Shown one piece after another: positions 5,863 to 38,301 of a DNA stretch of 64,000 nucleotides (position 1 is its first letter; the number at the start of each line of letters is the position of its first letter). The notes below the pieces were generated by a model. The model made no database searches. It was not told the origin of the DNA and saw nothing but the letters and a program-made list of their open reading frames with translations. Origin of the DNA: a candidate division TM6 bacterium GW2011_GWF2_28_16 (GTDB lineage Bacteria; Patescibacteriota; Microgenomatia; UBA1400; PJMF01); the NCBI GenBank assembly GCA_001029715.1, contig CP011212.1, positions 67,407-131,406 of the forward strand, written 5' to 3'. A program made the translations under genes and the position numbers.

Positions 5863-6435
5863 ATGCGACAGGTTAATTTAGTTAATGATCAAGATGAAAT
5901 AATTGGGCAAACCGATCTCTTGGATGCTCATAGGGGAGAAGGAAAGAAGCATCAGGCTATTTCTTTATTTTTGTTTCATAAAAAAAGAAATGGCGAATTT
6001 GAACTATTAATTCAACAACGTAGCAATGAAAAAATTGTTGGTGCTTTAGAGTGGGCCAATACAATCTGTGCAAATTTATTACCAGGAGAAAATCATTTAA
6101 CTTGTTTGAAAAGAAGGGTTTTTGAAGAGCTTGGAATTAGATGGCAAGAGGAATGGCCACTAGAAAAAACAATGATTTTTGATTATCAAATTCCTTGCGA
6201 AAATGGTTTTTGTGAAAATGAAATTGATCATATTTTCGTTTCAGTTTTAGATGAAAAGCTGATTTCTAATTTGGAAATTTCACTAAATCCAAAAGAAGTG
6301 GTTGCCACTAGTTGGATTGATTGGAATGATCTCAAACTTAAAAAAGTAGGGGAGAAAAAAATAACTCCTTGGCTTAATCTATTTTTAGATAGCTCAGAAA
6401 TTATTAAAAAAATTGATCGGATGCTCATAAAATGA
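5863..6435 (+). CDS. idi: isopentenyl-diphosphate delta-isomerase, type 1 (Nudix fold)
   Basis: Matches the type-1 IDI layout: HRGEGKKHQAISLFLF.., QQRSNEKI.., WANTICANLLPGE, VFEELGI. Confidence 0.72.
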   Translation: MRQVNLVNDQDEIIGQTDLLDAHRGEGKKHQAISLFLFHKKRNGEFELLIQQRSNEKIVGALEWANTICANLLPGENHLTCLKRRVFEELGIRWQEEWPLEKTMIFDYQIPCENGFCENEIDHIFVSVLDEKLISNLEISLNPKEVVATSWIDWNDLKLKKVGEKKITPWLNLFLDSSEIIKKIDRMLIK

Positions 6436-7109
6436 CAGAAACAAAAAGCTTAGTTCCCAAACATGTAGCTATTATTATGGACGGTAATCGTCGCTGGGCT
6501 CGCCAACAGGGTTTGTCCATAATCAAAGGTCATCGCAAAGTTGCTGAGGAAATGATTGAGCGCCTGGCAGATTTTGCTATTGCCGAGGGAATAGAATATT
6601 TAACTCTTTGGGCTTTTAGTACAGAAAATTGGCAAAGACCAAAAGATGAATTAGATGGAATTATGGCTCTTTTTCGTGAAACCTTCTCTACTAGTGCCAA
6701 AAGACTACATAAAAAAGGAGTTAGAGTGGCTGTAATAGGGGATTTGAATCGTTTTCCAGATGATATTAGAAAAGGCGTGGAATTCTGGGTGGAAGAAACT
6801 AAAGAAAACAATAAGCTAATAGTGACTTTTGCCTTAAATTATGGTGGTAGAGATGATATTAAAAGAGCAGTTAAGCTTGGTGGTGAAGATTTCGAGAATT
6901 TTTTAGATACTAAAAGAGTAATTGATATTCCAGATCCAGATTTTTTGATTCGTCCCGGTGGGGAAAAAAGACTTTCTGGATTTTTAACTTGGCAGACGGT
7001 TTATACAGAATTGTATTTTACTGATGTTCTTATGCCGGACTTTGATGAAAAAGAATTTGCCAAAGCACTAGAAGACTATGCTCAGAGACAAAGAAGATTT
7101 GGGAAATAG
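6432..7109 (+). CDS. uppS: undecaprenyl-diphosphate synthase (cis-prenyltransferase)
   Basis: Shows HVAIIMDGNRRWA, LTLWAFSTENWQRP and LIRPGGEKRLSGFLTWQ. There is a 4-nt overlap with idi. Confidence 0.93.
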   Translation: MTETKSLVPKHVAIIMDGNRRWARQQGLSIIKGHRKVAEEMIERLADFAIAEGIEYLTLWAFSTENWQRPKDELDGIMALFRETFSTSAKRLHKKGVRVAVIGDLNRFPDDIRKGVEFWVEETKENNKLIVTFALNYGGRDDIKRAVKLGGEDFENFLDTKRVIDIPDPDFLIRPGGEKRLSGFLTWQTVYTELYFTDVLMPDFDEKEFAKALEDYAQRQRRFGK

Positions 7110-9180: not shown

Positions 9181-9181
9181 A

Positions 9182-9649: not shown

Positions 9650-9679
9650 TTTATATTTTGATTATAAACCATTTATCTA

Positions 9680-12305: not shown

Positions 12306-13122
12306 TTTGTTTGCGGGTTATTTCTAACTCTTGCCACAAAACTTCTGGAATTATTTCTACTAGATCACTACTATTGAAAAAAGTTCCCTGTTTTTTGTAA
12401 AGTTCTTCAGCTGATTTTTTATTAATGTAGCTGGCGACCAAGCAGCTCTCCAAGGCTTCACTTTTACAATAAAATGCGGCTAAAAGACCAGCTAAAACAT
12501 CCCCCGTGCCACCTTTAGTCATGCCGGCATTGCCACCCTCAACTTCAATTTCCTCTGGATTTTGAGGCTTAAAGATTTTATCAGTTTGTCCTTTGAGTAA
12601 ACAAAAACAATTAGCTTGATAATTTACCTCGTTAAATAAATTGTTTTTTTTTTGCAATAGCACCATCTCCTGATGATGTGGAGTAATGATATGATTTTTG
12701 TTTAGCAATTTTACGTCAAGCATTTGCAATGCTCCGGCGTCAATAACCCATTTTTTATTTGGATATTTTTTTAGCAAATTATTAATCAATCTCTTAGTAT
12801 AAAAAGACCGATCCATGCCTGGGCCAATCAAAACAGCATCAGCCTCGTCAATATAATTTTTGATTTGTTTGCGACTAATAACGATGCCATTCCAGAATTT
12901 TTCTTTTGCCTCATTGATCAATTTATTATTACTTGGAACTGAAGAGTAAAAAACCATGTCAACGATTTTACTTGCAATATCTAAGCTCCACTTACTGGCA
13001 GCATGAAATAATTCACTACCACCGATAATTAGCAATTTACCATTTTGGCCTTTATGAGAATTACTTTTTGGCAAAGAGAGTTGCGCAAGGGCAAGCTCTA
13101 GAGCTTGTATTTTTTTATTCAT
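12295..13122 (-). CDS. nnrD: ADP-dependent NAD(P)H-hydrate dehydratase (YjeF C-terminal family)
   Basis: Shows HKGQNGKLLIIGGS..FHAASKWS and GNAGMTKGGTGDVLAGLLAAF. Confidence 0.85.
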   Translation of the reverse strand: MNKKIQALELALAQLSLPKSNSHKGQNGKLLIIGGSELFHAASKWSLDIASKIVDMVFYSSVPSNNKLINEAKEKFWNGIVISRKQIKNYIDEADAVLIGPGMDRSFYTKRLINNLLKKYPNKKWVIDAGALQMLDVKLLNKNHIITPHHQEMVLLQKKNNLFNEVNYQANCFCLLKGQTDKIFKPQNPEEIEVEGGNAGMTKGGTGDVLAGLLAAFYCKSEALESCLVASYINKKSAEELYKKQGTFFNSSDLVEIIPEVLWQELEITRKQITR

Positions 13123-18100: not shown

Positions 18101-19303
18101 ATGCCCATCCTTCATTTAAATTTTCAAAAAACCAAAAATCTTAAATATATTTATGCAATTCGTCTTGTTCGTGAATTTGCCAATCAACTAATGGTTTTCT
18201 TTTTACCACTTTATTTTTTTAACATTCGTTTTTCCTTCATGAGCCATTTCGACCTATCTCCCCTGCAAGAAGGAATTTTTAACGTAATGATTGTTTTGTT
18301 GTTAACTCGGTTAGTTGCTTTATTTTCTGCCATTCCAATCGCCAAAATACTTAATAAATACGGTATTCGTCATGGTTTTTTGATGGGACATTTGCTGTAT
18401 TCTTTGTTTGTTCTATGTCTTTATCTTTCCAAAGCCAATCCTTATTTAGTTTTAACGGCTGCGATAATTGATGGTTTCCAAATTAATTTCTTTTGGAACA
18501 GTTATTATTATTCTATTAGTCGTAACAGCGACCAAGCAAAAATGGGTGCAAATCTAGGTGCTGTGAATTTTTTACTTCACTTACTAGCAATGATCGCTCC
18601 TGCTTTAGGTGGTTTAATTATTGTGACCTTAGGATATCAGACTTTGTTTTTACTTGGTTTAGTGATTATTCTTAGTGGAGTAATTTTTTCAATTTTACTC
18701 AACAATGTTAAAGTAAAAGATAAAATCTCCTTCAAAGAATTTTTAACTTGGCTTAAAGAGCCTGGATTTAAACGCCTGGCAGTAAGTTTTGCTGGAAAAT
18801 ATTTTAATGATGCTTCTGTTAGTTTGTGGGCACTTTATATGTTCATTTTGCTTGGTAGTACTGAGGGAGTTGGTTATTTATATAGCTTGTCTTTGCTTTT
18901 AGCTTTGCTTGTGAGCTATACGGCTGGTTCTTTTATAGATAAGCACAAAAATCGCAAACAATTCTTTATTTCTGGTGGATTTTTATCGATTTTTTGGGCT
19001 TTGAGGGGCTTTGTTGTTGGCATTTGGTCAATTACTATTTTAAATGCAGTCGACAGACTAACCTCAAGTTTTCACTGGTTATTTTTTGATCGTAGCTGGA
19101 TTCTGCGAGGCAAAGGTCGTGAAGCCCTTTCCTATTTTGTTTATCGAGAAATGATCTATTCTTTTGCAGCCATAGTTTTTTGGCTTATAGTGGCAATTTT
19201 ATTTTATTTCTTTGTTTTTGCTTGGAAGAGTTTGTTTATTGTTGCCGGAATGGGTGTTCTTTTAACTTTGCTAGTCAAAGAGCATCAAGGAGAAAGCAAT
19301 TAA
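18101..19303 (+). CDS. MFS-type transporter
   Basis: 400 aa with roughly 12 hydrophobic helices split by a central loop. Specificity is unknown. Confidence 0.6.
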   Translation: MPILHLNFQKTKNLKYIYAIRLVREFANQLMVFFLPLYFFNIRFSFMSHFDLSPLQEGIFNVMIVLLLTRLVALFSAIPIAKILNKYGIRHGFLMGHLLYSLFVLCLYLSKANPYLVLTAAIIDGFQINFFWNSYYYSISRNSDQAKMGANLGAVNFLLHLLAMIAPALGGLIIVTLGYQTLFLLGLVIILSGVIFSILLNNVKVKDKISFKEFLTWLKEPGFKRLAVSFAGKYFNDASVSLWALYMFILLGSTEGVGYLYSLSLLLALLVSYTAGSFIDKHKNRKQFFISGGFLSIFWALRGFVVGIWSITILNAVDRLTSSFHWLFFDRSWILRGKGREALSYFVYREMIYSFAAIVFWLIVAILFYFFVFAWKSLFIVAGMGVLLTLLVKEHQGESN

Positions 19304-20337
19304 AATTTCCTGGAAAAATTATATTCAAGAATTTCTTTTAAAAGGAGATTCATCTCTTTAGGCTCTATTTCTGCGATTTCAACTTGAGCTTTTTTCTTAA
19401 ATTGATTAAGTAATTTTTCAATTTTTGTTTGGGCGAATTGTCTAAAAAGATTTTGAATTTTGATGATTTCTTCTTTGCTAAGATTTTTTTGTCCATATTT
19501 TGCCATTAAAAACTCTTTTTCTGATGGAGGAATTTCCTCTAGTAGAGTTAAATAGAAAAGTGTCTTCTTACCCTCTCTAATATCAGAGGCAAAACTTTTG
19601 CCAGAAAGCTCTTCCGGAGTAAAAATGCTGATAGAATCATCCACTATTTGGAAGATTAAGCCGAGCTTTTCACCGATTTTTTCAAGTTGTGTGATTTCCT
19701 CATCTTTTAATTCATTGATTAGTCCAGCTAATTTCAATGGAAGAGAAAAAGTATAGCGAGCTGTTTTGAAAAGATACATTTCTAAGACTTCATCAAAACT
19801 TGGAAGTTCTTTTTGCGAGGTAATTTTGCTATCTAACATTTCTGCAAAATTAGTTTTAATGATTTCTTCTGAAATAGTTGGAAGAATATTTGTTTCTCTT
19901 AATAAAGAAATAGCTAGGAAATTTGCAATGTTGGCAAGGCAAATCGCTTGGTTTTGCCCATATTCTTTAGGATTCTGATAGTTTTCTCTTTCAGCATCCA
20001 ATTCATATTGATACCAAATTGAATTTTGACCACGGCGCTTCTTATCTTGGTCAATAATATCGTCATGGATGAGTAGGCTTGAGTGAATTAATTCTAATGC
20101 GGCGGCAATCTTTAGAAGTTTTTTTTGTTCTGTTTGATATTTTTTTTCATCAAGAGATTTGACGGCAAGTAAAAAAAGTCCGCCGCGCACAGTTTTACCA
20201 CTGATTACAAAATCTTTAATTTTGCTAAAAGCATCTTTCACCAAGCTTTGTTTTTCAAATTTCTTTTCTTCCTCAGAAAGAAAAGAGAGTAGAAAATTAT
20301 CAATGAGTTGTTTTTCTTCTTGTAATTTTTCTATCAT
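19300..20337 (-). CDS. polyprenyl diphosphate synthase (trans-IPPS, FPP/GGPP synthase family)
   Basis: The first Asp-rich motif is LIHDDIIDQDKKRRG. The second motif region is FQIVDDSISIF (DDxxS rather than DDxxD), followed by GKSFASDIREGKKTL. Confidence 0.82.
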   Translation of the reverse strand: MIEKLQEEKQLIDNFLLSFLSEEEKKFEKQSLVKDAFSKIKDFVISGKTVRGGLFLLAVKSLDEKKYQTEQKKLLKIAAALELIHSSLLIHDDIIDQDKKRRGQNSIWYQYELDAERENYQNPKEYGQNQAICLANIANFLAISLLRETNILPTISEEIIKTNFAEMLDSKITSQKELPSFDEVLEMYLFKTARYTFSLPLKLAGLINELKDEEITQLEKIGEKLGLIFQIVDDSISIFTPEELSGKSFASDIREGKKTLFYLTLLEEIPPSEKEFLMAKYGQKNLSKEEIIKIQNLFRQFAQTKIEKLLNQFKKKAQVEIAEIEPKEMNLLLKEILEYNFSRKF

Positions 20338-21099: not shown

Positions 21100-22278
21100 A
21101 TGTCATTTTTTAAGAAAAATATTCAAATGCAAAATGATGAGCAAGCAATTGCTTCTCGTCAAGAAGACTTGCTAAAGAATTGGAAAAAGGCTGATTTTAA
21201 GCAGCTTTTTTCTATCAACAAAGCACTGAGCAAAGCCAACCAATGCAATTGTGAAAATATGATTGGCGCAGTTACTTTACCGGTTGGTTTGGCTGGTCCA
21301 GTTAAAGTTATTTTAGAAGACAGCGAAACTGAATATTTTGTGCCCCTAGCAACTAGTGAGGGCGCTTTAGTTGCTAGCGTAAATAGGGGTTTAAAAGCAA
21401 TTAATCAAGCTGGCGGAGCTCAAGTTTTTGTCAAAAATGTTGGCATGACTAGAGCTCCAGTTTTTGCTTTTGAAAATGGCAAAGAAGCTTTTGCTTTTGC
21501 TACTTATTTGGAAGAAGCCAAAACTTTGGCGGAAATAAAAAAGATTACTGAACTAAGCAGCGATCACCTCCATTTTAAAAATCTCCAGAGTTTTGTCAGA
21601 GGTCGTAATGTCTATGTACGTTTTAGTTTCTTCACTGATCAAGCCATGGGCATGAACATGGTTACCCTTGCCCTTCAGAAATTGTGGGAAGAATTTTTGA
21701 GTAATTATCAGGGTATAAAAATGTTGGCTTTATCTAGTAATGTTTGTACTGATAAAAAATCTTCATTTATCAATCAATTACTTGGTAGAGGCTATAGTGC
21801 TCAGGCTGAGGTTTTTTTAAGTGAAGCAATTTTGGAAAATATTCTAAAAACTAGTTCTAAGGCTTTGTTTAAAACCCATCAAAGCAAAAATCAAATTGGT
21901 TCAAATCTAGCCGGGACTTTTTCTAACAATATGCAATTTGCCAATGTGGTGGCAGCTTTTTATATGGCTACTGGTCAAGATTTGGCTCATATCACTGAGG
22001 CAAGTCAAGGTAATACAATCGTCGAGGAAACTGAAGAAAAAGGCCTTTATTTTGCAGTTAACTTACCAGATTTGCCGCTTGGCAGTGTTGGTGGTGGAAC
22101 TAACTTGCCCGCTCAAAAAGAGTTGCGCAACTTAATTCATCAAAGTAACGAAGACCTAGGCTCAGTGCAACTAGTTAGTATTTTAGCGACTGGCGTTTTG
22201 GCAGCGGAAATTTCTGGTTTGGCAGCTCTTAGTAGTAATAGCCTAGCCCAGGCCCACCAAAGATTGGCAAGAAAATGA
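21100..22278 (+). CDS. hydroxymethylglutaryl-CoA reductase, class I (archaeal/eukaryal type catalytic domain)
   Basis: Shows ENMIGAVTLPVGLAGPV, TSEGALVASVNRG, DQAMGMNMV and GGGTNLP. Confidence 0.88.
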   Translation: MSFFKKNIQMQNDEQAIASRQEDLLKNWKKADFKQLFSINKALSKANQCNCENMIGAVTLPVGLAGPVKVILEDSETEYFVPLATSEGALVASVNRGLKAINQAGGAQVFVKNVGMTRAPVFAFENGKEAFAFATYLEEAKTLAEIKKITELSSDHLHFKNLQSFVRGRNVYVRFSFFTDQAMGMNMVTLALQKLWEEFLSNYQGIKMLALSSNVCTDKKSSFINQLLGRGYSAQAEVFLSEAILENILKTSSKALFKTHQSKNQIGSNLAGTFSNNMQFANVVAAFYMATGQDLAHITEASQGNTIVEETEEKGLYFAVNLPDLPLGSVGGGTNLPAQKELRNLIHQSNEDLGSVQLVSILATGVLAAEISGLAALSSNSLAQAHQRLARK

Positions 22279-23345
22279 AAACAAATCAAGTCGGCATAGT
22301 TGCCTATGGTGCAGCTATTCCAAGACACAAGGTTTCCACTAATATTATTGCTCAAAGTCAGGGTAAAAATGCTGATGTGGCTAAATCTTTGGGTGTTTTT
22401 TCAAAAACTATTCCAAGTTTAGATGAAGATACAGTGACTCTTTCTACAGAAGCAGGCAAAATTGCTTTGGATAGATTTTTATTAAATAAGGGCGCAGTCA
22501 AAAATATCGAAACTCTTTTTATTGGTAGCGAAAGTCATCCTTATGCTGTCAAACCATCTGGCACAGTAGTCAAAGAAGCTCTTGGTTTAAGCAACTATTT
22601 AAGTATGGCTGATCTACAATTCGCTTGCAAAGCTGGTTCTCAGTCTCTGCAAATCGCTGCAGCTTATGTTCAGGCAAAAATGGTTAAAAATGCCATGGCA
22701 ATTGGTGCAGATACTGCCCAAGCTCGTCCTGGAGATGCTCTAGAATATACTGCGGCGGCGGGCGCCGCCGCCTTCATCCTTGGTCATGAAGCGAATAGCG
22801 ATCAATTATTAGCTCGCTTATCAGCCACTAAATCAGTAGCAACTGATACGCCAGATTTTTGGCGCAAACCAAAAGAATCTTATCCGCAACATTTTGGCAG
22901 ATTTACTGGCGAGCCGGCTTATTTCAAGCATGTTTTGATGGCCAGTAGTGCGCTTCTTGCAGAAACAAAGTTGAAGCCAGCAGAAATTGATTTCTGCGTT
23001 TTTCATACGCCAAATGCCAAGTTTCCAGAGCAAGCCGCTAAAATACTTGGATTTACCAAAGAGCAATTAGCTCCATCTCTAGTCGTTAAAGAAATTGGTA
23101 ACACTTATGCCGCTGCTTCACTTTTAGCTCTAACTGCAGTTCTTGATGTCGCTCATGCTAGTGCTAAAATTTTGGTTTGTTCTTATGGTTCTGGTTCGGG
23201 GGCTGATGCTTTTTTGTTTGAAACAACTAAGAATTTGGAAACACAGAGAGTAAAGTATAAAAAAACTCTAGCAGCCCAAATTGCTGCTTTGGAAGCAATT
23301 GATGCTGAAACTTATCAAAAAATGAGGACTGACAATGAACATTAA
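22275..23345 (+). CDS. hydroxymethylglutaryl-CoA synthase (archaeal-type, short form)
   Basis: Shows GIVAYGAAIPRHKV, ..GSESHPYAVKP.. and FACKAGSQSL (catalytic Cys context), then HTPNAKFP. There is a 4-nt overlap with the HMGR gene. Confidence 0.85.
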   Translation: MKTNQVGIVAYGAAIPRHKVSTNIIAQSQGKNADVAKSLGVFSKTIPSLDEDTVTLSTEAGKIALDRFLLNKGAVKNIETLFIGSESHPYAVKPSGTVVKEALGLSNYLSMADLQFACKAGSQSLQIAAAYVQAKMVKNAMAIGADTAQARPGDALEYTAAAGAAAFILGHEANSDQLLARLSATKSVATDTPDFWRKPKESYPQHFGRFTGEPAYFKHVLMASSALLAETKLKPAEIDFCVFHTPNAKFPEQAAKILGFTKEQLAPSLVVKEIGNTYAAASLLALTAVLDVAHASAKILVCSYGSGSGADAFLFETTKNLETQRVKYKKTLAAQIAALEAIDAETYQKMRTDNEH

Positions 23346-24444
23346 AGTAATTGGCAATTACATTGGTAAATTTGCTGAGCTTTGGGAACAGAGCTTAACT
23401 GATTTGATTAAAGAAGGAGTAGAGGGCGTTTTAGCTGATGCGCAAATTGATCCAAAATCAATTGATGCGATTTTTGTAGCCAATAAAGCTAGTGGTAGTT
23501 TTAATAATCAACGTCATTTAGGTGCTTTAGTGAGTGAGCAATTTGCTCATTTTCCTCCAGCAATGCGCATTGAGGGCGCTTGTGCTTCGGGTGGTTTAGC
23601 TATGCTAGCTGCGGAGCAAGCCTTACTCAGCGGTGTTTATAAAACAGTTTTAGTGCTCGGAGTAGAGAAAATGACTGATGTCTCTGGTTCGGAAACAGCA
23701 GCTATTTTAGCGACTGCAGCTAGTCGAGAGAAAGAATATGGCTCTACTTTCCCAGCCCTCTATGCGATTTTGGCCAATTATCACATGAATAAATACGGCA
23801 CTACCAGAGAGCAGTTATCTAGTGTAGTGGTTAAGAACCACTTACACGCCTTCGATAATCCTAAAGCCCAGTTTCATAAGAAATTTACTTTAGAAGATGT
23901 TGCCAATTCTGCCATGGTCGCTTCGCCTTTGCGCTTGTTAGATTGTTCACCAATTAGCGATGGAGTAGCTGCCGTCATTCTTAGCAGTAAACCTTCTTCT
24001 CGCAAAGCTAAAATTCTTGGTTTTGGACATGGCCAAGATACTTTGGCACTTGCCGATCGCCAAGATTTAGGCAGATTGGCTGCGACAGAAAAAGCAGCCA
24101 AACAAGCGTTCTTAATGGCCAAATTGAGTCAGACAGACATTCAAGTGGCAGAAGTTCATGATTGTTTCAGTATTGCTGAAATTTTGGCAGTGGAAGACTT
24201 AGGCTTCTTTGCCAAAGGAAAAGCCGCCGCCGCCATTGCTAAAGGCAAAGCTACTTACGGTGGGCAAATAGTTATCAATCCTTCCGGCGGCCTCAAAGCT
24301 TGTGGGCATCCAGTTGGAGCGACCGGAGTGAAGCAAATTGCTTTTTTGGCTAATTTAATTGAAAAAGGAAAATTTGAACGAGTTCTAGCTCATAATGTTG
24401 GCGGCAGTGGAGCAACCGCGGCTGTAAATATTTTAGGAATATAA
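23335..24444 (+). CDS. acetyl-CoA acetyltransferase (archaeal-type thiolase)
   Basis: Shows RIEGACASGGLA (active-site Cys), ..EVHDCFSIAE.. and NPSGGLKACGHPVGATG. Confidence 0.85.
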   Translation: MNIKVIGNYIGKFAELWEQSLTDLIKEGVEGVLADAQIDPKSIDAIFVANKASGSFNNQRHLGALVSEQFAHFPPAMRIEGACASGGLAMLAAEQALLSGVYKTVLVLGVEKMTDVSGSETAAILATAASREKEYGSTFPALYAILANYHMNKYGTTREQLSSVVVKNHLHAFDNPKAQFHKKFTLEDVANSAMVASPLRLLDCSPISDGVAAVILSSKPSSRKAKILGFGHGQDTLALADRQDLGRLAATEKAAKQAFLMAKLSQTDIQVAEVHDCFSIAEILAVEDLGFFAKGKAAAAIAKGKATYGGQIVINPSGGLKACGHPVGATGVKQIAFLANLIEKGKFERVLAHNVGGSGATAAVNILGI

Positions 24445-24446
24445 AT

Positions 24447-24740
24447 ATGAATATAACGGAGTATTGGCGCTCAAACAAACAATGGTCTAAATATCTTGGC
24501 AAAAAAGCCAAGGTTTTAGCTGTTTCATTGATGGAAGTGGCGGCTTCAGATCAAACTGCGCTTTTGCCTTATTCTTATTTGCTCCTAGATTTAGAGAAAA
24601 GTAAAATTTCTTTGATGGGTGCTGCTCATCAAGAATTTAAAATTGGTGATGAGGTAGAAATTGTTTTGCGCAAAATTAAAAAAGAGGCTCAGGAAGAGAT
24701 AATCGTTTATGGTCTCAAAGCGGAAAAAATTTATGTCTAG
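24447..24740 (+). CDS. DUF35-type OB-fold protein lacking the N-terminal zinc ribbon (thiolase/HMGS partner)
   Basis: 97 aa with no Cys. The pattern G..AKVLAVS..........LPYSYLLLDLE...ISLMG.......IGDEVEIVLRK resembles the DUF35 OB-fold. It occupies the same position as the archaeal thiolase-HMGS-DUF35 triad. Confidence 0.55.
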   Translation: MNITEYWRSNKQWSKYLGKKAKVLAVSLMEVAASDQTALLPYSYLLLDLEKSKISLMGAAHQEFKIGDEVEIVLRKIKKEAQEEIIVYGLKAEKIYV

Positions 24741-25599
24741 TTTTTACAGTGGCAAAGTTATTTTAAGTGGGGAACATAGCGTGGTTTATGGCTATCAGGC
24801 TGTTCTGGCGAGCTTGGATTTAGGAATTTCTTGTATTGCTAAAGAAGGCTCTTTGAGTCATGAGCAAAAAAGTGATCTATATCTACAGCACATTCTAGAG
24901 ATGTTTTCTAAGCTTGCACAAATTAAAGAAATTCAGTTAGCACTTAAAATTAAATCGAATTTGCCTCAAAAATCAGGTCTTGGTTCTTCAGCGGCTTTTG
25001 CAGCAGCAGTTTTTTCAGAGTTGGCAGATTTTTATAATTATTCACTCAACCAAGATCGCCTCTACAAATTGGTTTTAGAAGCAGAAAATTTTATTCATGG
25101 TCGTTCCAGCGGAGCTGATCCAGCGATTGTTGTTTATGGTGGCTTAATTGCTTTTAGTCAAGGTAAAGTAGAGCATTTGCCAGATTTAGCCTTGGCAAAG
25201 AAAAGTTTTTTCTTAATTGATTCTGGAATTGCTGATGAATCCACTGGTGAAATGGTGGCTAAAGTTGCTGCTAATAAGTCTAGCCGGCCATTTATAGATG
25301 AAATTGGCGGAATTAGTCAAAAAATGATAGTTGATTTAAAGAATAGTTTCTTCAATCCTCAACTTTTGAATGAAAATCAAGCACTTTTAGAAGAAATTGG
25401 CATAATTGCTGATTCAGTGAAAGACACTATTCGCCAATTACAAAAGTTAGGTGCTTTTTGTAAAATTACTGGAGCAGGCGGACTGAAGAGTGGCTCTGGT
25501 TTTATTTTAGCTTTTCACCAAAATGAAGCAAACTTTGAGCAAAATTTAAAAAATATGGGTTTGAGTTTTTTCAAAACCCAACTAGGAAATACGAAATGA
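24733..25599 (+). CDS. GHMP kinase, mevalonate-kinase-like (paralog 1)
   Basis: Shows GKVILSGEHSVVYG (motif I) and QKSGLGSSAAFAAAV (motif II), then KITGAGG. ATG 24733 (MSSFYSGK..) is preferred over the longer 24709 start. Confidence 0.8.
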   Translation: MSSFYSGKVILSGEHSVVYGYQAVLASLDLGISCIAKEGSLSHEQKSDLYLQHILEMFSKLAQIKEIQLALKIKSNLPQKSGLGSSAAFAAAVFSELADFYNYSLNQDRLYKLVLEAENFIHGRSSGADPAIVVYGGLIAFSQGKVEHLPDLALAKKSFFLIDSGIADESTGEMVAKVAANKSSRPFIDEIGGISQKMIVDLKNSFFNPQLLNENQALLEEIGIIADSVKDTIRQLQKLGAFCKITGAGGLKSGSGFILAFHQNEANFEQNLKNMGLSFFKTQLGNTK

Positions 25600-26585
25600 A
25601 AAAAGTGAAGACTTCTGCCCCAGGAAAATTGATGCTTTTTGGTGAACATAGTGTGGTTTTTGGTCATCCTTGTATTGTGACTGCCGTTGATCGTCGTTTA
25701 TCAATTACTGTTGAGGAAAATGGCGAAGAAGTTTTTATTTTAGATGCGCCAGATTTGGGTTTACGAGCTTATTCTAAGCGAATTTGTGATCTTGGTAATA
25801 AAGATTTGCCAAAAGAAGTTAGCTTTATCGAAACTTGCTATAAGCTATTTTTGGAGAAATACCCACAACAAAAAACTATTCATGTTTATAGCAAGAATGA
25901 ATTCAAATCTTCTTATGGTCTTGGTTCAAGTAGTGCTAGCACAGTGGCTTTTGCTAAAGCTTTAAGTGAGTTTTATGAAGTGCCAATGAATAATGATCAG
26001 TTGTTCGATTTGGCTTATCAGACTGTTTTAGAAGTGCAGGGTGTGGCTTCTGGTTTTGACATTGCAGCTGCAATTTGGGGTGGAACGATTTATTACATCA
26101 CTCCTCATGGCAAACTTAGTAAACATAAAACTGTCGAACCAATCAAAATCAAAAACTTGCCTTTGTTAGTTGCCTATACTGGTATTAAAGCTGATACTGC
26201 CACCTTAATTCGAATGGTGCAAAATTTGCACAGTGAAAACAAAGGAACAGTTAATCACATTTTTACCGATATTACTCTTTTGGTAGAACAGGCTAAAAAG
26301 ACTCTTCAACAGCAAGACTGGCCACATCTTGGCTTATTAATGGATGAGAACCAAGCTTTACTACGTAAATTGCAAATTAGTAGCATTGAGCTAGAGAATC
26401 TCATCGCTGCTGGCAAAAGTGCCGGAGCAATGGGAGCCAAGCTCTCTGGAGCTGGAGGCGGTGATTGTATGTTAGCTTTAGTTGATGAAGCTGAGAAAAA
26501 AGCCGTTGCTCAAGAAATTACCAAGGCTGGTGGTAAAATTATTGAGGTGGAGATGAATGCGGAGGGCGTACGTTTGGAAAACTAA
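25596..26585 (+). CDS. GHMP kinase, mevalonate/phosphomevalonate kinase (paralog 2)
   Basis: Shows APGKLMLFGEHSVVFG, SSYGLGSSSASTVAFA and KLSGAGGGDCMLAL. There is a 4-nt overlap with paralog 1. Confidence 0.8.
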   Translation: MKKVKTSAPGKLMLFGEHSVVFGHPCIVTAVDRRLSITVEENGEEVFILDAPDLGLRAYSKRICDLGNKDLPKEVSFIETCYKLFLEKYPQQKTIHVYSKNEFKSSYGLGSSSASTVAFAKALSEFYEVPMNNDQLFDLAYQTVLEVQGVASGFDIAAAIWGGTIYYITPHGKLSKHKTVEPIKIKNLPLLVAYTGIKADTATLIRMVQNLHSENKGTVNHIFTDITLLVEQAKKTLQQQDWPHLGLLMDENQALLRKLQISSIELENLIAAGKSAGAMGAKLSGAGGGDCMLALVDEAEKKAVAQEITKAGGKIIEVEMNAEGVRLEN

Positions 26586-26694
26586 GTTTCGAGCCAGAGA
26601 TCGCTTGAATAAATACATTTTTTCACGCGCTCAAATGTCTCTAAACTTAGTTTTCCAAAACGTACTTTATTTAATTAAGCAAATTGAAAAAAAT

Positions 26695-27693
26695 ATGAAA
26701 AAAACAACGGTTCAAGCAGGTAGTGATATCGCTTTTGTTAAGTATTGGGGCAAAAAGGATAAAATCCTACGTTTACCAAGCAATGGTAGTATTTCCATGA
26801 TTTTAGATTCTTTGCAGAGCAAAACTACTGTCGAGTTTTTGCCAAATTTAGCTAAGGATGAGATCATAATAGGTGGCGAAGTTGAAGAGGGAGAGGCTTC
26901 TCGTGCCATTAAACATTTGGACAGAATTAGAACTTTAGCCAAAGAAAAAGGATTGATAGATAAAGATATTTTTGCTAAAGTCGTTTCGGAGAATAATTTT
27001 CCCAAGAGCACTGGTCTTTCTAGCTCTGGTTCTGGTTTTGCTGCTTTGACCATGGCTGCCACTAAGGCTATTGGTTTAGATCTTTCAGAAAAAGAATTGT
27101 CTATTTTAGCCAGGCAAGGATCTGGCTCTGCCTGTCGCTGTGTTTGTGGTGGTTTTGTTGAGTGGTTAGATGGTGAAACTTCTGAAGAATCTTATGCACA
27201 AAGCTTTGCTAAGTCAGAAGATTTTGATATTAGAGATTTAGTGGCGATTGTTTCAGAAGATAAAAAGAATTTAAGCTCAAGTGATGGACATGATTTAGCA
27301 GAAAGCAGTTTGTTTTTTAAGGCTCGTCAAGAAAAAATTGATACCAAGTTAGCAGCTGTCAAAAGAGCAATTTTACAAAAAGACTTTGAAACCCTAGGTG
27401 AAATAGTAGAAGCCGAGGCTTTAGAGTTTCACTCAATTTTATTAACCAGTCAGCCAACTATCTTGTTGTTTTATCCGGGAACGATTGAGGTGATGCAGGC
27501 TGTTCGTCAATTGCGTAAGACTGGTGTGCCAGTTTATTTCACTATTAATACCGGCTTCAATGTCCACATTTTGACTTTACCTCAATATGAGAAACAGGTA
27601 GCTGCTGTTTTGCAAAATTTACCAAGTGTGCAGAAAATTATTATCTCAGGAGCAGGTAATCAGCCAGAATATTTAGAAAAACATTTGTTTTAA
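26695..27693 (+). CDS. mvaD: diphosphomevalonate decarboxylase
   Basis: Shows SDIAFVKYWGKKD, PKSTGLSSSGSGFAAL and GSGSACR. ATG 26695 (MKKTTVQAG..) is preferred; the 46-codon upstream extension in the ORF track has no homology-like content. Confidence 0.85.
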   Translation: MKKTTVQAGSDIAFVKYWGKKDKILRLPSNGSISMILDSLQSKTTVEFLPNLAKDEIIIGGEVEEGEASRAIKHLDRIRTLAKEKGLIDKDIFAKVVSENNFPKSTGLSSSGSGFAALTMAATKAIGLDLSEKELSILARQGSGSACRCVCGGFVEWLDGETSEESYAQSFAKSEDFDIRDLVAIVSEDKKNLSSSDGHDLAESSLFFKARQEKIDTKLAAVKRAILQKDFETLGEIVEAEALEFHSILLTSQPTILLFYPGTIEVMQAVRQLRKTGVPVYFTINTGFNVHILTLPQYEKQVAAVLQNLPSVQKIIISGAGNQPEYLEKHLF

Positions 27694-28109
27694 AAACTTG
27701 GTGTCGAACTGCGACTGGCTTCGTATTGCTTAACTACTTCTTGGCAGTAAATATATTTGCCATATTCAAAAGCTTTTTCAGAAATATTTTGCTCGCCATT
27801 TTCGTCAACTCTGACGGCCTCTTGGACAAATTCTTGAGCAACTCCACCAGCCTCTTTGGCTTTTTCTGTCAAAATCTTAATTTGTGAAACACCATTTTCA
27901 CCTAAATTTTTAAAGTCTTCTTGCTTGAAATCAATTTGATCAAATTCAATTTCTTTATCTTTTTGCCAGGGAAGAGTGATACTTTTTGGGAGGCCTTCTT
28001 CTATTTTGGAAAAAATTTCATTATTAAGCCAACCTTTGTTTTTGGCAAATTTATAGGCAAAAACAACTAGAGCTATGGCGATAATAATGGTAAACAATTT
28101 GCGAAGCAT
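27690..28109 (-). CDS. hypothetical N-terminally anchored protein
   Basis: 139 aa with an N-terminal TM (LFTIIIAIALVVFAY) and no recognisable family. Its start codon lies inside a 9-bp hairpin (28104-28129). Confidence 0.5.
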   Translation of the reverse strand: MLRKLFTIIIAIALVVFAYKFAKNKGWLNNEIFSKIEEGLPKSITLPWQKDKEIEFDQIDFKQEDFKNLGENGVSQIKILTEKAKEAGGVAQEFVQEAVRVDENGEQNISEKAFEYGKYIYCQEVVKQYEASRSSTPSF

Positions 28110-28187
28110 GCTTTTATTTTAGCATGCTTTAAGGAGCGGCTGTGCACCCTGCGGGTACTACCCAGGTTTGCTTTGCAAACTTGGCGG

Positions 28188-28261
28188 TGCGTGTGCTAGG
28201 ACTCGAACCTAGAACCGCCAAGGTATAAGCTTGGAGCTCTAACCAATTGAGCTACACACGC
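28188..28261 (-). tRNA. tRNA-Ile, anticodon UAU
   Basis: The minus-strand sequence folds into a clean 74-nt cloverleaf: acceptor GCGTGTG/CACACGC, D arm GCTC-AATTGGTTA-GAGC, anticodon stem CCAAG/CTTGG with loop C-T-TAT-A-C, variable CGGTT, T arm CTAGG-TTCGAGT-CCTAG, discriminator A. CCA is not encoded. Confidence 0.88.
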
Positions 28262-28303
28262 GTTGATTTGTGTCAGGGGTAGATTTTACTAAATTTATTG
28301 ACT

Positions 28304-29287
28304 TTATAGAAGTAGTAGCAAGAGTGCGCCAACGCCTAGGGCTCCAAGGCCAGCTTTAATGTAGTTCATCCAATCAGCTGGGCCACTTTCAGTAGGAACG
28401 TTGATTGGGCGCACGATGGTGGTTTCACCATTTGCTAATTTGCATTGACTATCTGTAGGATTGACGTCGAGGCGACATTGACCGCTGTAACAAATATGAC
28501 TAATGTTGCTACAGTCAGCATTGGCATTACAAGTTTCGTTGCAGCCAACAGTGGTAATAACGGTGGTAACAGATGGAGTTGGAGTGCTGGTAGCGGTCAC
28601 AGTAGTAGTTGGAGTTACGGTTGTAGTTACAGTAGTGGTTGGAGTAACAGTTGTAGTAACGGTTGGAGTAACAGTTACGGTTGCTTCACAACAAGTTGTG
28701 CTACTAGGATCGGCGACACATTCATCGAGATAATCTTCATCTGCACAGTATTTAACAATGTTTCCATCGCCATCAGTATCTGAAGTAGAAATACAAACAT
28801 AACCATCTTCGCAGTCATCGCTGTTGGTACAGTCTTTTTCACCACAAGAAAGCAAGTTTTCTTCTGGAGCGGTGCAACAAGAGTCAGTGTTTGGATCATC
28901 TATACAGGCTGTTTTATAATCTTCATCTGCACAATATTTATTGCCATTGTCGGCCTCAATACAAATTAAATTACTGCTACAGTCATCGTCACTTTCGCAA
29001 CCACTCAAACCACAGGTAATTTTATCTGGTTCTGTAACTGTAAATTCAAGAGTACAAGTTTGAGTTTTTTCAATATAAGCAGCTGGCTGAGATTGAGGGG
29101 CAGTTGGGGCGACTGGAGTAGTGTCTTGTTTTTGCGTAATTAAGAAAACACTAACTGCGCCACCAACAAAAATTAGTAGACCCAGCAACATAGCGATCAC
29201 TTTAAAATCGCCTTTTTTCTTCAGAGCAGTTTGTCCTTGCTTTGATTTTACGTAGGTCGCTGGTGTTTCAATTTGTTCTATGTTCAT
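28304..29287 (-). CDS. Cys-rich surface protein with N-terminal signal anchor, T/V/P repeat stalk and C-terminal hydrophobic anchor
   Basis: The TM is FKVIAMLLGLLIFVGGAVSVFLI. Two roughly 50-aa modules (CG..(G/D)C..(D/S)DDC.....C......YCADEDY...C..DP.....CC) are followed by (TVTPTTTV)n, a third degenerate module, and the terminal GLGALGVGALLLLLL. Confidence 0.7.
   Translation of the reverse strand: MNIEQIETPATYVKSKQGQTALKKKGDFKVIAMLLGLLIFVGGAVSVFLITQKQDTTPVAPTAPQSQPAAYIEKTQTCTLEFTVTEPDKITCGLSGCESDDDCSSNLICIEADNGNKYCADEDYKTACIDDPNTDSCCTAPEENLLSCGEKDCTNSDDCEDGYVCISTSDTDGDGNIVKYCADEDYLDECVADPSSTTCCEATVTVTPTVTTTVTPTTTVTTTVTPTTTVTATSTPTPSVTTVITTVGCNETCNANADCSNISHICYSGQCRLDVNPTDSQCKLANGETTIVRPINVPTESGPADWMNYIKAGLGALGVGALLLLLL
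28590..28684. repeat. imperfect ~24-nt tandem repeat inside the CDS, encoding (TVTPTTTV)n
   Basis: Repeating units such as ggttggagtaacagttgtagtaac are visible on the plus strand. The wider T/V/P-coding tract spans about 28549-28686. Confidence 0.7.
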
Positions 29288-29291
29288 TATT

Positions 29292-30683
29292 TTAATTCAC
29301 ATTATCTATCATTGTGCTTGGTGAATTATCCACCATTTCCCAAACTTGGCATTCCGTTCCCCAGCAAATACGACCCTGGACAACGTAATCTCCAAAGCTT
29401 GAAATGGTGTAGGAATCAGATACATTTTTAGCAATTGCGCCACTAGTGTCAGTTAGATCTATCCAAGAGCTCATGCCTGGAGCCCAGATTCTAAATTCAT
29501 AATTAAAGTCAACTCCTTGGTTGCCGACAGCAGTGCAACGGAAGCGCACCTCATCTCCGTCCTTGAGACTATCATCATCGTTTGCTTCCATAGTATTGTT
29601 ATTAGCATCTAGCATATCTATGCTGGCACAAACTGGCATAGCCTGGCTTTCACAACAATTGGCAGTGCTTGGATCAGCTGCGCAAAACAATTGATTTTCT
29701 CCTTTGGCACAAATACCAGTCGATTGAGAGTCGACTGTTACTGTTTGACAAGTAAGACCATTTTGACAGTCAGAATTTTGAGTACAACCAATCACTCCGC
29801 AGGCTAAAAGTTCTGGAGGTGTAGTAGGAGTTGGAGTAGGTGTTCTATTTGGAGGATTAGTTGGAGTAGGGGTTGGTGTGGCGCAATCTGAACAATCAGC
29901 TCCAGCATCACCGCATAAAGCATCACAACTTGAGGCACTGCCTATCACCCACCAGCCAGCGCTACATTGGCAACGCATTAAGCCAGATTCTTCACAGTTT
30001 TCGATTACTGAAGTATTTGGATTGTCGCACCAATCTCCGCCCATGGATTGTTCTGTGCACGGATCTTGATCGGTAACGTAACCGCACATGGTATCGCCAT
30101 TGGCGATTATTCTACAGGTAGTACTAACACATGGTCCACCAGCTACGAGTCTATGCAGATTTGGACCGCAGGCCGCCACAGTTGTGGTTGGAGTAACGGT
30201 CGAACCACCCGTGGGTGTACAGGCACCATCAATTACACGATAGCCAGTAATACATCTTCCACTAGTACCATTACAATATGGATCTCCTTCCATACACATC
30301 TCACTGGCTTGTTGGCGGTTGTCTTGATTTTGTCTGCTAAGTATATAACTAGAAAAAACCCCAACTACCAAGAAAAAAACTATAAGTAAGCCAGCCAATT
30401 TATTATTTGATTTCTTTTTCACTTGAAAAGATGGTTTTTGATCAGTTGAAAGTGGATTTTGAATAGAAACAGTTTCAGCACCTGACTTAACTGCCTCTTT
30501 GAGAGGTTCATTATCTGTAATTGTATTACCGCGATATTCTGGTATTTCTGGTTCTTTAGCAAGATCATTCCAAGGGGAATCAATTTTTTCTGGTTCTTTA
30601 ACAAAGTTATCGGAAGAATCCTCTGCCTTGTCTATCTGGCTTTTTTTATATTTAGCTGGTATAAAATCTCTAGGATTATTCAT
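29292..30683 (-). CDS. Cys-rich surface protein (signal anchor, PT-linker, shared Cys module, C-terminal beta-rich domain)
   Basis: About 95 aa of cytoplasmic N-terminus precede the TM LAGLLIVFFLVVGVFSSYIL. Then come a Cys-rich region, a PTPTPTPTNPPNRTPTPTPTTPP linker, and the module CGVIGCTQNSDCQNGLTC...FCAADPSTANCC shared with the neighbouring gene. Confidence 0.7.
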   Translation of the reverse strand: MNNPRDFIPAKYKKSQIDKAEDSSDNFVKEPEKIDSPWNDLAKEPEIPEYRGNTITDNEPLKEAVKSGAETVSIQNPLSTDQKPSFQVKKKSNNKLAGLLIVFFLVVGVFSSYILSRQNQDNRQQASEMCMEGDPYCNGTSGRCITGYRVIDGACTPTGGSTVTPTTTVAACGPNLHRLVAGGPCVSTTCRIIANGDTMCGYVTDQDPCTEQSMGGDWCDNPNTSVIENCEESGLMRCQCSAGWWVIGSASSCDALCGDAGADCSDCATPTPTPTNPPNRTPTPTPTTPPELLACGVIGCTQNSDCQNGLTCQTVTVDSQSTGICAKGENQLFCAADPSTANCCESQAMPVCASIDMLDANNNTMEANDDDSLKDGDEVRFRCTAVGNQGVDFNYEFRIWAPGMSSWIDLTDTSGAIAKNVSDSYTISSFGDYVVQGRICWGTECQVWEMVDNSPSTMIDNVN

Positions 30684-33964: not shown

Positions 33965-34033
33965 TTATTCAGCTACTACTAAGATAGCTTTTAGATCAAT
34001 AATTCTAAGTTGAGGTTTTTTATATTTTTGCAT
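33965..34033 (-). CDS. un-called 22-codon ORF MQKYKKPQLRIIDLKAILVVAE; candidate RiPP precursor / leader-like peptide
   Basis: Hand-translated from the minus strand. Y4-x-x-P7-x-L9 matches the YxxPxL leader motif bound by PqqD-like RREs. A TTGACA-17-TAACAT promoter ends 9 nt before the ATG. There is no Shine-Dalgarno, and the ORF is very short. Confidence 0.35.
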   Translation of the reverse strand: MQKYKKPQLRIIDLKAILVVAE

Positions 34034-34042
34034 TGTAATTTA

Positions 34043-34071
34043 ATGTTAGATAATTTTTAAGTTGTTGTCAA
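34043..34071 (-). promoter_or_regulatory. sigma-70-type promoter TTGACA-17 nt-TAACAT upstream of the 22-codon ORF
   Basis: On the minus strand, -35 TTGACA is at 34071-34066 and contains the TGA stop of the methyltransferase gene. The spacer is 17 nt and -10 TAACAT is at 34048-34043. The ATG is at 34033. Confidence 0.45.
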
Positions 34072-34784
34072 CGATTAGATTGCTTTTGAATTATGCCCAG
34101 TCCAGAGCCTAAATAATTTACTTCAATCTTATTTTTGTTTGTTTTTTCTTCCCAAAGTTTCCAGACTCCGTATTTTCCTTCTGGCAAAGTTTCTTTTATA
34201 GAAATATCGTGCAGAAGCATAAGACCTCCTTCATGGAGCATCGGCCAGAAGAGTTTAAAATCTGTTTTTATTCCTTCATAGGAATGGTCTCCGTCTATAT
34301 AGATATATTCATAGCTCATGTTTTTATATTTTTTGGCAAATTTTTGCGTAGTTGTTACAAATAGTTGGATATTATTTTCTAAGCCAAAATTTTTGAAATG
34401 ATCTTTGCCTTCTTGAGTTTTCCAAAAACCTTTTCCGGTCCATGAGCTTTTACCTTCTTTTTTTATTTCATCGCCAAATCCCGCATCAACAAAGTCGACT
34501 TTGCCAAAACCATTGTCATGACAAGCTTGAGCTAGAACAGCTGGTATATATCCATATCGGGATCCAATGCAAAGAATTTTCTTTGCTTTTATTTGTCTGA
34601 GTAGGCCATAGTGAATCCAACCATATCCTAGGTCAGCATTTTTGATATTGGATTCGTGTCCAAATTCATCTGCTTCAAAAAAATTCATTAATTCGGTAAT
34701 TCTTAAATCATTGGAGAGCTTTTTACTTTTTTCTTGCTGATGGAATATTAAATATTTTAAGATTTTTGTTTTGATTCCAAACAT
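34068..34784 (-). CDS. class I SAM-dependent methyltransferase (CmcI / Methyltransf_24-like)
   Basis: Shows ILCIGSRYGYIP (a degenerate G-rich motif I) and YIYIDGDHSYEGIKTDFKLFWPMLHEGGLMLLHDI. Confidence 0.7.
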   Translation of the reverse strand: MFGIKTKILKYLIFHQQEKSKKLSNDLRITELMNFFEADEFGHESNIKNADLGYGWIHYGLLRQIKAKKILCIGSRYGYIPAVLAQACHDNGFGKVDFVDAGFGDEIKKEGKSSWTGKGFWKTQEGKDHFKNFGLENNIQLFVTTTQKFAKKYKNMSYEYIYIDGDHSYEGIKTDFKLFWPMLHEGGLMLLHDISIKETLPEGKYGVWKLWEEKTNKNKIEVNYLGSGLGIIQKQSNR

Positions 34785-34789
34785 AGGTT

Positions 34790-38294: not shown

Positions 38295-38301
38295 AGTTTT
38301 T

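Follow-up and report, generated by a model that had tools for sequence, protein, structure and literature searches.

Mevalonate pathways have been reported for Peregrinibacteria (Anantharaman et al., 2016; PMC4736985) and across the candidate phyla radiation (CPR) by Hoshino and Gaucher (2018; PMC6107057). According to the sections of the latter study covered here, CPR mevalonate genes are usually clustered and syntenic with prenyl synthases, class-II 3-hydroxy-3-methylglutaryl-CoA (HMG-CoA) reductase (HMGR-II) is absent from CPR, genes of the methylerythritol phosphate pathway are sparse, the CPR sequences form clades of their own, which for the early enzymes lie close to archaea and for the late enzymes branch at the base of bacteria, and the gene set with its synteny is typical of Microgenomates and was present in the CPR ancestor. 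The closest solved system for the first steps is the thiolase/HMG-CoA synthase (HMGS)/DUF35 complex of Methanothermococcus thermolithotrophicus (6esq/6et9). For the last steps, two layouts serve for comparison: the classical one of eukaryotes and Gram-positive bacteria, with two GHMP kinases and a diphosphomevalonate decarboxylase (DMD), and that of Chloroflexi and haloarchaea, with mevalonate kinase (MVK), phosphomevalonate decarboxylase (PMD) and isopentenyl phosphate kinase (IPK). Here, a cluster of seven mevalonate pathway genes was analyzed in a 64-kb stretch of a CPR genome (contig CP011212.1; the whole stretch of 64,000 nucleotides is referred to as the window). We consider it highly probable that these genes form a housekeeping operon of a CPR bacterium, inherited within its lineage and providing the cell's route to isopentenyl diphosphate (IPP) and dimethylallyl diphosphate; the methylerythritol phosphate pathway is presumed to be absent. 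This reading builds on gene content, family membership and intact catalytic motifs, on the host lineage, and on conservation, synteny and host-like composition in CPR, all of which were observed directly. The arrangement itself is an already published property of the lineage and ordinary for it.

The gene set spans about 6.6 kb (21100-27693), and its seven plus-strand genes are all intact, apparently functional and co-directional according to the open reading frame (ORF) table (Table 1). The junctions are, in order, a 4-nt overlap, an 11-nt overlap, a 2-nt gap, an 8-nt overlap (between the DUF35 gene and kinase 1, counted from the alternative start 24733 and not from 24709), a 4-nt overlap and a 109-nt spacer (26586-26694) between the kinase 2 and decarboxylase genes. 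The initial annotation had described precisely this series of short overlaps and gaps with one long spacer and had called the operon complete; both descriptions hold, with seven products assigned. For the HMG-CoA reductase (HMGR) an alternative start at 21127 gives a 383-aa form, as called on other contigs. The decarboxylase was taken to start at 26695 because nearly all of its orthologues among the best 120 listed comprise 321-344 aa, mostly 326 or 332, and because the Pfam match begins only at residue 51-56 of the long ORF; the 378-aa ORF from 26557 was rejected on these grounds. Promoter and terminator scans yielded sites no more frequent than in shuffled sequence.

Table 1. Features of the mevalonate operon and related prenyl-chain genes (window coordinates; ORF spans as listed in the ORF table).
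Feature	Span	Strand	Length	ORF span	Basis
Class-I (NADPH-type) HMG-CoA reductase	21100..22278	+	392 aa	21100-22278	PF00368 343 bits; TIGR00533 336 bits
Archaeal-type short HMG-CoA synthase	22275..23345	+	356 aa	22275-23345	NF003274, TIGR00748
Archaeal-type (SCP-X-like) acetoacetyl-CoA thiolase	23335..24444	+	369 aa	23335-24444	PRK06064, AcCoTHIOL_METTL
Zinc-ribbon-less DUF35 homologue (N-terminal helix + OB-fold), no cysteine	24447..24740	+	97 aa	24447-24740	profile + fold
GHMP kinase 1, probable mevalonate kinase	24733..25599	+	288 aa (296 aa from ATG 24709)	24709-25599	TIGR00549
GHMP kinase 2, MVK/PMK hybrid by sequence, probable phosphomevalonate kinase (PMK)	25596..26585	+	329 aa	25596-26585	TIGR00549, TIGR01220
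Hairpin, kinase 2 stop codon and spacer before decarboxylase gene	26568..26665	+	~98 nt		RNA minimum free energy, covariation
Diphosphomevalonate-decarboxylase homologue, Asn285 at catalytic Asp position	26695..27693	+	332 aa	26557-27693	TIGR01240
Trans-prenyl diphosphate synthase	19300..20337	-			PF00348 170 bits
IDI-1-like NUDIX protein, probable IPP isomerase	5863..6435	+			NF002995, TIGR02150
Cis-prenyltransferase (undecaprenyl-diphosphate synthase)	6432..7109	+			TIGR00055 228 bits (cutoff 110); PF01255

The upper half of the operon is of archaeal type. As claimed initially, the HMGR belongs to class I: it scored 336 bits against the class-I model TIGR00533, a value below the curated equivalog cutoff of 442, as compared to 34 bits against the class-II model TIGR00532, and its best solved relative was 6hr7 with 264 bits, followed by plant and human class-I structures with 207-214 bits, the class-II structures listed reaching about 25-31 bits. 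The translation carries CENMIG, CTDKK, GQD and a C-terminal His (AHQ), which we take to be the catalytic Glu, Lys, Asp and His by mapping from human HMGR. The HMGS passed NF003274 (412 bits, cutoff 244) as well as the archaeal equivalog TIGR00748 (372 bits, cutoff 353) and reached only 108 bits on the bacterial MvaS model TIGR01835. The thiolase lies just outside the curated archaeal models, with 417.1 bits on PRK06064 (cutoff 420) and 380 bits on AcCoTHIOL_METTL (cutoff 600), and its best solved relative was the M. thermolithotrophicus thiolase 6esq_A (270 bits); that of the HMGS was 6esq_I (316 bits). Residue-level alignment to these chains found the Glu-Cys-His-Asn tetrad of HMGS retained (GSESHPY, FACKAG, VFHTPN, GNTY) together with the CxS (CAS), HDxF (HDCF) and GHx (GHP) motifs of the thiolase, as the tetrad and the thiolase motifs are defined in PMC12960953.

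The third member of this triad is a gene annotated in GenBank as encoding a hypothetical protein. A Pfam scan of the 97-aa ORF gave no match even at E<=10, whereas the best PDB sequence match was the DUF35 subunit 6esq_E (phmmer, E=2.4e-3), and a profile built from 22 orthologues matched residues 47-124 of the same chain with E=2.2e-6. Three homologues of the protein carry PF01796. An AlphaFold (AF2) model (pLDDT 77) displays two short helices followed by a five-strand barrel, and its top 11 Foldseek matches were all DUF35 proteins, namely those of 6esq, BbsA, MucC, Trf and ChsH2. Since profile, homologues and fold agree, the product is a DUF35 OB-fold protein in truncated form, as the initial annotation had supposed for the OB-fold. 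The alignment to 6esq_E passes from the N-terminal helix with its YWR motif to the OB-fold and skips chain residues ~23-46, and a CxxC...CxxC zinc ribbon was found in none of the 24 CPR orthologues examined (loci within L007-L032, beside the thiolase gene; L-numbers denote related loci in species-representative genomes). Because zinc is bound at the equivalent site by every DUF35 protein with a characterised structure (PMC6996347), the ribbon-less form is a lineage-wide structural variant in CPR.

The likeness to the Methanothermococcus channeling complex is thus considerable: the three genes are adjacent, the complex subunits are the nearest solved relatives of all three products (thiolase 270 bits, HMGS 316 bits, DUF35 profile E=2e-6), and the catalytic and HDxF motifs are retained in the window enzymes, so that the archaeal-type triad reported in the initial annotation was confirmed. 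By contrast, the DUF35 protein of the window has only 97 aa, is free of cysteine and has the ~30-residue rubredoxin-like zinc ribbon deleted, the host is bacterial, and formation of the complex is a prediction.

The host is indeed a bacterium of the CPR/Microgenomates group (Ca. Pacebacteria). Bacterial descent had been claimed from the letters and is substantiated by a bacterial Pth, a sigma-70 factor, pilins of the CPR-type T4SS and dnaN-rpmH-rnpA-yidC just upstream of the window; an ATP-dependent DNA ligase is also encoded in the surroundings. The region inspected comprised the window and about 20 kb upstream of it. Proteins identical to those of the window are found on contigs from Rifle aquifer groundwater (PRJNA268031) and on a closed 853,053-bp GenBank contig (proteins AKM81007-AKM81034). 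In GenBank they stand under two names, Ca. Pacebacteria bacterium GW2011_GWF2_38_9 and candidate division TM6 bacterium GW2011_GWF2_28_16 (KKQ88416-KKQ88424; locus tags US01_C0001G...). As the close relatives without exception belong to Microgenomates, the TM6 name seems to be erroneous, and it could contaminate analyses of Dependentiae. With regard to the clusters of Hoshino and Gaucher (PMC6107057), in the sections covered here, the host group is the same and the window genome belongs to the Rifle data set on which CPR was founded; a difference is that the operon of the window neighbours a trans-prenyl synthase gene, with the cis-prenyl synthase and isopentenyl-diphosphate isomerase (IDI) genes 14 kb away, whereas synteny with cis-isoprenyl diphosphate synthase is typical in the paper.

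Related loci with informative organism names were all from CPR (Pacebacteria, Microgenomatus, Woesebacteria, Magasanikbacteria, Parcubacteria group), and the only clear non-CPR locus was a weak match of 29%. The core HMGR-HMGS-thiolase-miniDUF35 was present in about 23 CPR loci, and in the nearest 10-11 species the operon and the housekeeping genes around it show conserved synteny: the nearest relatives keep the seven-gene order together with the flanking genes for monogalactosyldiacylglycerol synthase, Pth, a major facilitator superfamily transporter and the trans-prenyl synthase, with identities of 52-89% for the mevalonate proteins as compared to 47-84% for the flanking genes.

The label 'archaeal type' given to the whole operon in the initial annotation needs to be divided: it stands for the upper half and fails for the lower half, which consists of two GHMP kinases and a DMD homologue, with no IPK in the window. 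This mosaic of archaeal-type upper and bacterial/eukaryotic-type lower enzymes bears on the deep origin of the operon. An ancient inter-domain transfer into the CPR stem, which would leave the function proposed here unchanged and alter only its deep origin, finds some support in it and in the statement, in the sections of PMC6107057 covered, that most bacteria use thiolase II, MvaS and HMGR-II. The authors of that source explain the same tree topology by inheritance from a common ancestor or the last universal common ancestor, and we regard the transfer as possible, albeit somewhat unlikely.

The assignment of the lower half required more caution. Both kinase genes are named 'mevalonate kinase' by NCBI/GenBank. 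Kinase 1 scored 159 bits on TIGR00549 (cutoff 163) and only 52 bits on the PMK model, its best solved relatives are all MVKs, and it carries the motifs GKVILSGEHSVVYG, GLGSSAA, HGRSSGAD and KITGAGG. Kinase 2, 27% identical to kinase 1, passed TIGR00549 with 198 bits, and its best solved relatives are likewise all MVKs; it aligned over the full length to the PMK models TIGR01220 (131 bits, cutoff 166) and Arch_PMK (112 bits, cutoff 500). It contains SGFDIAAAIWGG (DIAAxxWGG) and SGAGGGDC, motifs which we take to be PMK-like. With moderate confidence, kinase 1 is predicted to be the MVK and kinase 2 the PMK, the latter on the basis of gene count, gene order and the phylogenetic labelling in the sections of PMC6107057 covered here.

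The decarboxylase homologue passed the DMD equivalog model TIGR01240 (255 bits, cutoff 171) and reached 198 bits on the haloarchaeal PMD model, far below the cutoff of 475. Its best solved relative was 6n0x (271 bits), which is the PMD of Anaerolinea thermophila (PMC9254496), with other deposited (di)phosphomevalonate decarboxylase chains at <=202 bits. Among the best 120 matches of the homologue search there was no outgroup: the named organisms were all CPR, and the remainder were metagenome proteins 58-95% identical. The active-site elements KYWGKKD, GLSSSGSG and the arginines of R...SGSACR are retained. The catalytic Asp, corresponding to D282 in Enterococcus faecalis, D283 in Staphylococcus epidermidis, D281 in Sulfolobus solfataricus and D280 in A. 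thermophila, is replaced by Asn285 (codon 27547-27549): the strictly conserved motif reads YFTINTGFNVH as compared to the canonical FTxDAGPN. This assignment is secure because the flanks align without gaps, for instance to YFTIDAGPNVH of L029. Asn occupied the site in 124 of 128 aligned CPR homologues, the canonical DAG(P/A) loop being present in four (L023, L025, L028 and L029), and in the Asn-type homologues Thr, Phe and Cys changes at nearby positions are conserved along with it, as is an ACRCVC motif. The Asp is shared by all enzymes of the DMD, PMD and mevalonate 3,5-bisphosphate decarboxylase (MBD) types but not by the non-decarboxylating mevalonate 3-kinase; in S. solfataricus DMD the exchanges D281T and D281V yield a 3-kinase and D281N keeps DMD activity, and in Picrophilus MBD the equivalent D309N abolishes activity (PMC9254496). 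Because D281N keeps DMD activity, it is plausible, and most likely, that the Asn-type enzyme works as a decarboxylase. A keyword literature search found no paper addressing the Asn substitution in CPR decarboxylases.

Taken together, kinase, kinase and decarboxylase point to the classical bacterial/eukaryotic layout and not to the archaeal MVK/IPK route. In common with the classical pathway of eukaryotes and Gram-positive bacteria, the window encodes two GHMP kinases followed by a DMD-family protein, in the order of the pathway, and the decarboxylase passes the DMD model; unlike it, both kinases are nearer to MVK than to any characterised PMK, and the decarboxylase is of the Asn type and nearest to the Chloroflexi PMD. 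That nearness to 6n0x is shared with the MVK-PMD-IPK pathway of Chloroflexi and haloarchaea, as is the occurrence of IPK within the cluster in other CPR lineages (L017, L018, L020, L022 and L028); the window differs from this pathway in having a second kinase, in the low score on the haloarchaeal PMD model and in lacking IPK. A tblastn search of the 64-kb window with a CPR IPK query (196 bits on NF040647) gave no match, nor was IPK found within the 8-10 kb flanking the loci of the closest relatives. The loci L017, L018, L020 and L022 run HMGR-HMGS-thiolase-miniDUF35-IDI, then one or two genes, IPK and undecaprenyl-diphosphate synthase, with no GHMP genes within 8 kb. In L017 (10475-13174) the extra gene encodes a second NUDIX protein and the IPK is archaeal-type (NF040647 196 bits, cutoff 120); L019 starts with the same genes and its sequence ends inside the IPK gene, and in L028 the decarboxylase adjoins IPK. 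Judged from these gene sets, CPR lineages seem to use different lower-pathway solutions, and the co-occurrence of IPK-bearing and kinase-bearing clusters fits the published remark that CPR holds parts of both routes.

It is conceivable, if doubtful, that a large Microgenomates clade carries re-tooled modules, i.e., an Asn decarboxylase of modified mechanism or substrate and a thiolase/HMGS pair tethered by a minimal DUF35 protein. In that case the decarboxylase may act on mevalonate 5-phosphate or on an intermediate that one of the two MVK-like kinases has phosphorylated at position 3. A non-classical lower half, in which the Asn decarboxylase uses mevalonate 5-phosphate with an IPK encoded elsewhere, or in which an altered or kinase-only enzyme is combined with a non-canonical kinase substrate, is improbable in our view. 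It would account for the best solved relative being the Anaerolinea PMD (271 bits as compared to <=202 bits for true DMDs), for the Asp-to-Asn exchange that 124 of 128 homologues share together with Thr and Phe changes, for the MVK-like character of both kinases and for IPK in the clusters of other CPR lineages, with the L028 decarboxylase beside it, and it would have a precedent in the S. solfataricus Asp-to-Thr/Val mutants that become 3-kinases (PMC9254496). However, the two kinases directly upstream fit MVK plus PMK, kinase 2 aligns full-length to PMK models, D281N of S. solfataricus retained DMD activity (PMC9254496), TIGR01240 is passed and the haloarchaeal PMD model is not (198 vs. 475 bits), IPK was detected neither in the window nor in the relatives' flanks of 8-10 kb, and the canonical-Asp CPR lineages L023, L025 and L029 share the same two-kinase context.

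The initial annotation had also inferred inter-domain transfer of the operon. As a recent event this could not be upheld, while ancient transfer and vertical descent are indistinguishable here. A recent gain of the operon or of its upper half from a methanogen-like archaeon, either in this bacterium or in ancestors close to it, would explain that for HMGR, HMGS, thiolase and DUF35 alike the nearest solved structures come from M. thermolithotrophicus and that the HMGS passes the archaeal equivalog cutoff. The comparison of operon composition with the flanks revealed no difference in GC content at third codon positions (GC3), with 0.287 ± 0.026 for the operon genes as compared to 0.274 ± 0.045 for the other window genes; in total GC the operon is higher, owing to codon positions 1 and 2. 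The total-codon Jensen-Shannon distance of the operon was somewhat high, a value that 2% of random gene sets reach, because of GC at codon positions 1 and 2, i.e., amino-acid content, and not because of GC3. A neighbour-joining tree of HMGS was calculated without support values from representatives at 50% identity drawn from 1.8 billion proteins, to which labelled CPR sequences and the chain of M. thermolithotrophicus were added. The window sequence fell inside a CPR clade whose sister clade holds a Babeliales (Dependentiae) protein and whose next clade holds a Beckwithbacteria protein; Lokiarchaeota, with a 506-aa form carrying a ~150-residue N-terminal extension, and Methanothermococcus fell elsewhere. 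The sequence thus groups with CPR and then Dependentiae and not inside archaea, in agreement with published trees; since it lacks support values, the tree excludes only a recent origin inside archaea. In view of the CPR-wide core, the flank-like GC3 and the position of HMGS in the CPR clade, recent transfer is not supported. It is further opposed by identities that fall with relatedness across about 23 CPR genomes and by the syntenic flanks of the nearest relatives, by the scores of thiolase (417 vs. 420 and 380 vs. 600 bits) and HMGR (336 vs. 442 bits) below the archaeal equivalog cutoffs, by the CPR-specific ribbon-less DUF35, and by distinct CPR clades whose branching is described as congruent with the CPR species tree in the sections of PMC6107057 covered here, so that we hold it to be very improbable. 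Hardly credible is the reading of the triad as a repurposed Friedel-Crafts acyltransferase of the PhlABC/MucABC type instead of an HMG-CoA-forming complex: such bacterial triads do share the thiolase/HMGS/DUF35 architecture (PMC12960953) and PhlA-type acylases are the second-best solved matches for HMGS, but at 155-161 as compared to 316 bits, the triad sits between HMGR and mevalonate kinase genes, and since the HMGS tetrad and the thiolase HDxF, both lost in PhlA/C and MucA/B (PMC12960953), are intact here, an acylase identity was ruled out at the sequence level.

Following the reading as a housekeeping mevalonate operon, we propose that the thiolase condenses two molecules of acetyl-CoA and that HMGS adds a third to give HMG-CoA, which class-I HMGR would subsequently reduce to mevalonate, each activity being predicted from homology. 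By analogy with the Methanothermococcus complex, the DUF35-like protein may tether thiolase and HMGS and so pull the unfavourable thiolase step forward. Kinase 1 most likely makes mevalonate 5-phosphate and kinase 2 most likely the 5-diphosphate, from which the decarboxylase homologue would release IPP; the IDI-1-like protein, the trans-prenyl synthase and the undecaprenyl-diphosphate synthase are expected to convert IPP to undecaprenyl diphosphate, the putative carrier serving both peptidoglycan and the Wzy/Bac_transf-type glycan locus of the window. Several points weigh against this proposal. The activities assigned to the CPR enzymes of the mevalonate pathway are predicted from sequence; the decarboxylase has Asn at the catalytic Asp position, with a PMD as its nearest solved relative; the kinases both fall short of the curated PMK cutoffs and obtain their best scores as MVKs; the IDI-like protein stays below the curated cutoffs; the DUF35 homologue lacks the zinc ribbon of every structurally characterised scaffold (PMC6996347), so that complex formation is not assured; and in the HMGS neighbour-joining tree, which carries no support values, one CPR sequence (Beckwithbacteria) lies just outside the main CPR clade.

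The genes for chain elongation were found in the window as the initial annotation had listed them: the undecaprenyl-diphosphate synthase scored above its cutoff and the trans-prenyl synthase was confirmed, while the type-1 IPP isomerase is represented by an IDI-like protein below the curated cutoffs (NF002995 103.5 bits, cutoff 127; TIGR02150 78 bits, cutoff 106). The latter keeps the equivalents of H25, H32, C67, E114 and E116 of the E. coli enzyme and has Asn in place of H69; we presume H25, H32 and H69 to be the His ligands and C67 and E114/E116 (ENE) the catalytic Cys and Glu. Its gene overlaps the undecaprenyl-diphosphate synthase gene by 4 nt. The trans-prenyl synthase, divergently oriented two genes upstream of the operon, has LIHDDIID as its first aspartate-rich motif, and its best NCBIfam matches include geranylgeranyl diphosphate and IdsA short-chain synthases, all below cutoff. 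The adjacency to the operon is kept in L007-L010, L013-L016 and L031, and the racemase gene in between was detected elsewhere only in L007. Between the undecaprenyl-diphosphate synthase gene and the sigma-70 gene lie seven small ORFs (7136-10099, minus strand), five of which match PF18895 (T4SS_pilin).

That the operon supplies lipid carriers for surface glycans, as suggested initially, is a sensible and reasonable proposal: in addition to the undecaprenyl-diphosphate synthase, the window encodes a Bac_transf initiating transferase, a WecG-type transferase, two Wzy_C proteins, sugar-modifying enzymes and several glycosyltransferases, and polyprenyl-phosphate carrier supply may reasonably be taken as the purpose of the operon. 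The glycan-assembly locus (34000-50200), with two Wzy_C proteins, GT2, GT4 and WecG transferases, an epimerase, an aminotransferase and several ORFs without Pfam match, has a GC content of 0.28 (0.24-0.33) and a GC3 of 0.23 and, unlike the mevalonate operon, is the compositional outlier of the window.

The spacer preceding the decarboxylase gene contributes to a hairpin with an RNA minimum free energy of -42.8 kcal/mol (z=-5.9), the 5' arm of which is coding sequence and the 3' arm of which co-varies with it between species. L011 (about 5522-5608) and L012 (about 12554-12640) carry the element in the same position, and 8 of 33 pairs show compensatory changes on both sides; in seven other close relatives the gap between kinase and decarboxylase genes is only 5-23 nt, and for two of these seven, L007 and L016, alignment found the element missing. 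Rfam holds no family for it, giving only sub-threshold miRNA-like hairpin matches. A repeated mobile element was considered and rejected, as blastn finds a single copy at this site only. Judging from structure and covariation, the hairpin could act in mRNA processing, stability or attenuation.

Downstream, three ORFs without Pfam family (139, 327 and 463 aa; 27690-30683, minus strand) are convergent with the operon, the first overlapping the decarboxylase stop by 4 nt; all three occupy the same position in L007, L012, L014, L015 and L016, and one or two of them do so in L008 and L013. A tRNA-Ile with anticodon UAU is encoded at 28186-28261 (minus strand), just downstream of the operon region (ARAGORN; Rfam tRNA 71.7 bits). 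Bacteria usually read AUA via a lysidine-modified CAU tRNA, and the UAU isoacceptor is uncommon.

The genomes of CPR bacteria are tiny, and most lipid and cofactor synthesis is reported to be missing from these organisms. A full mevalonate route in such a genome fits the view that polyprenyl-phosphate carriers for wall and surface glycans cannot be scavenged. The mosaic of archaeal-type upper and classical lower half is the pattern from which the literature argues for an ancient mevalonate pathway, and the window is a clean closed-genome example of this pattern, without extending it. Potentially new are the ribbon-less DUF35 protein, the Asn-type decarboxylase and the conserved hairpin, for which no description was found in the literature searched: DUF35 has no occurrence in the main text of PMC6107057, and the sections of that paper covered here contain neither the Asn substitution nor the intra-operon hairpin. 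Should a minimal DUF35 protein of helix and OB-fold indeed tether thiolase and HMGS, the zinc ribbon would be dispensable for channeling, and either this or an Asn decarboxylase of modified mechanism or substrate, if shown to be true, would be an additional variant in mevalonate-pathway enzymology.

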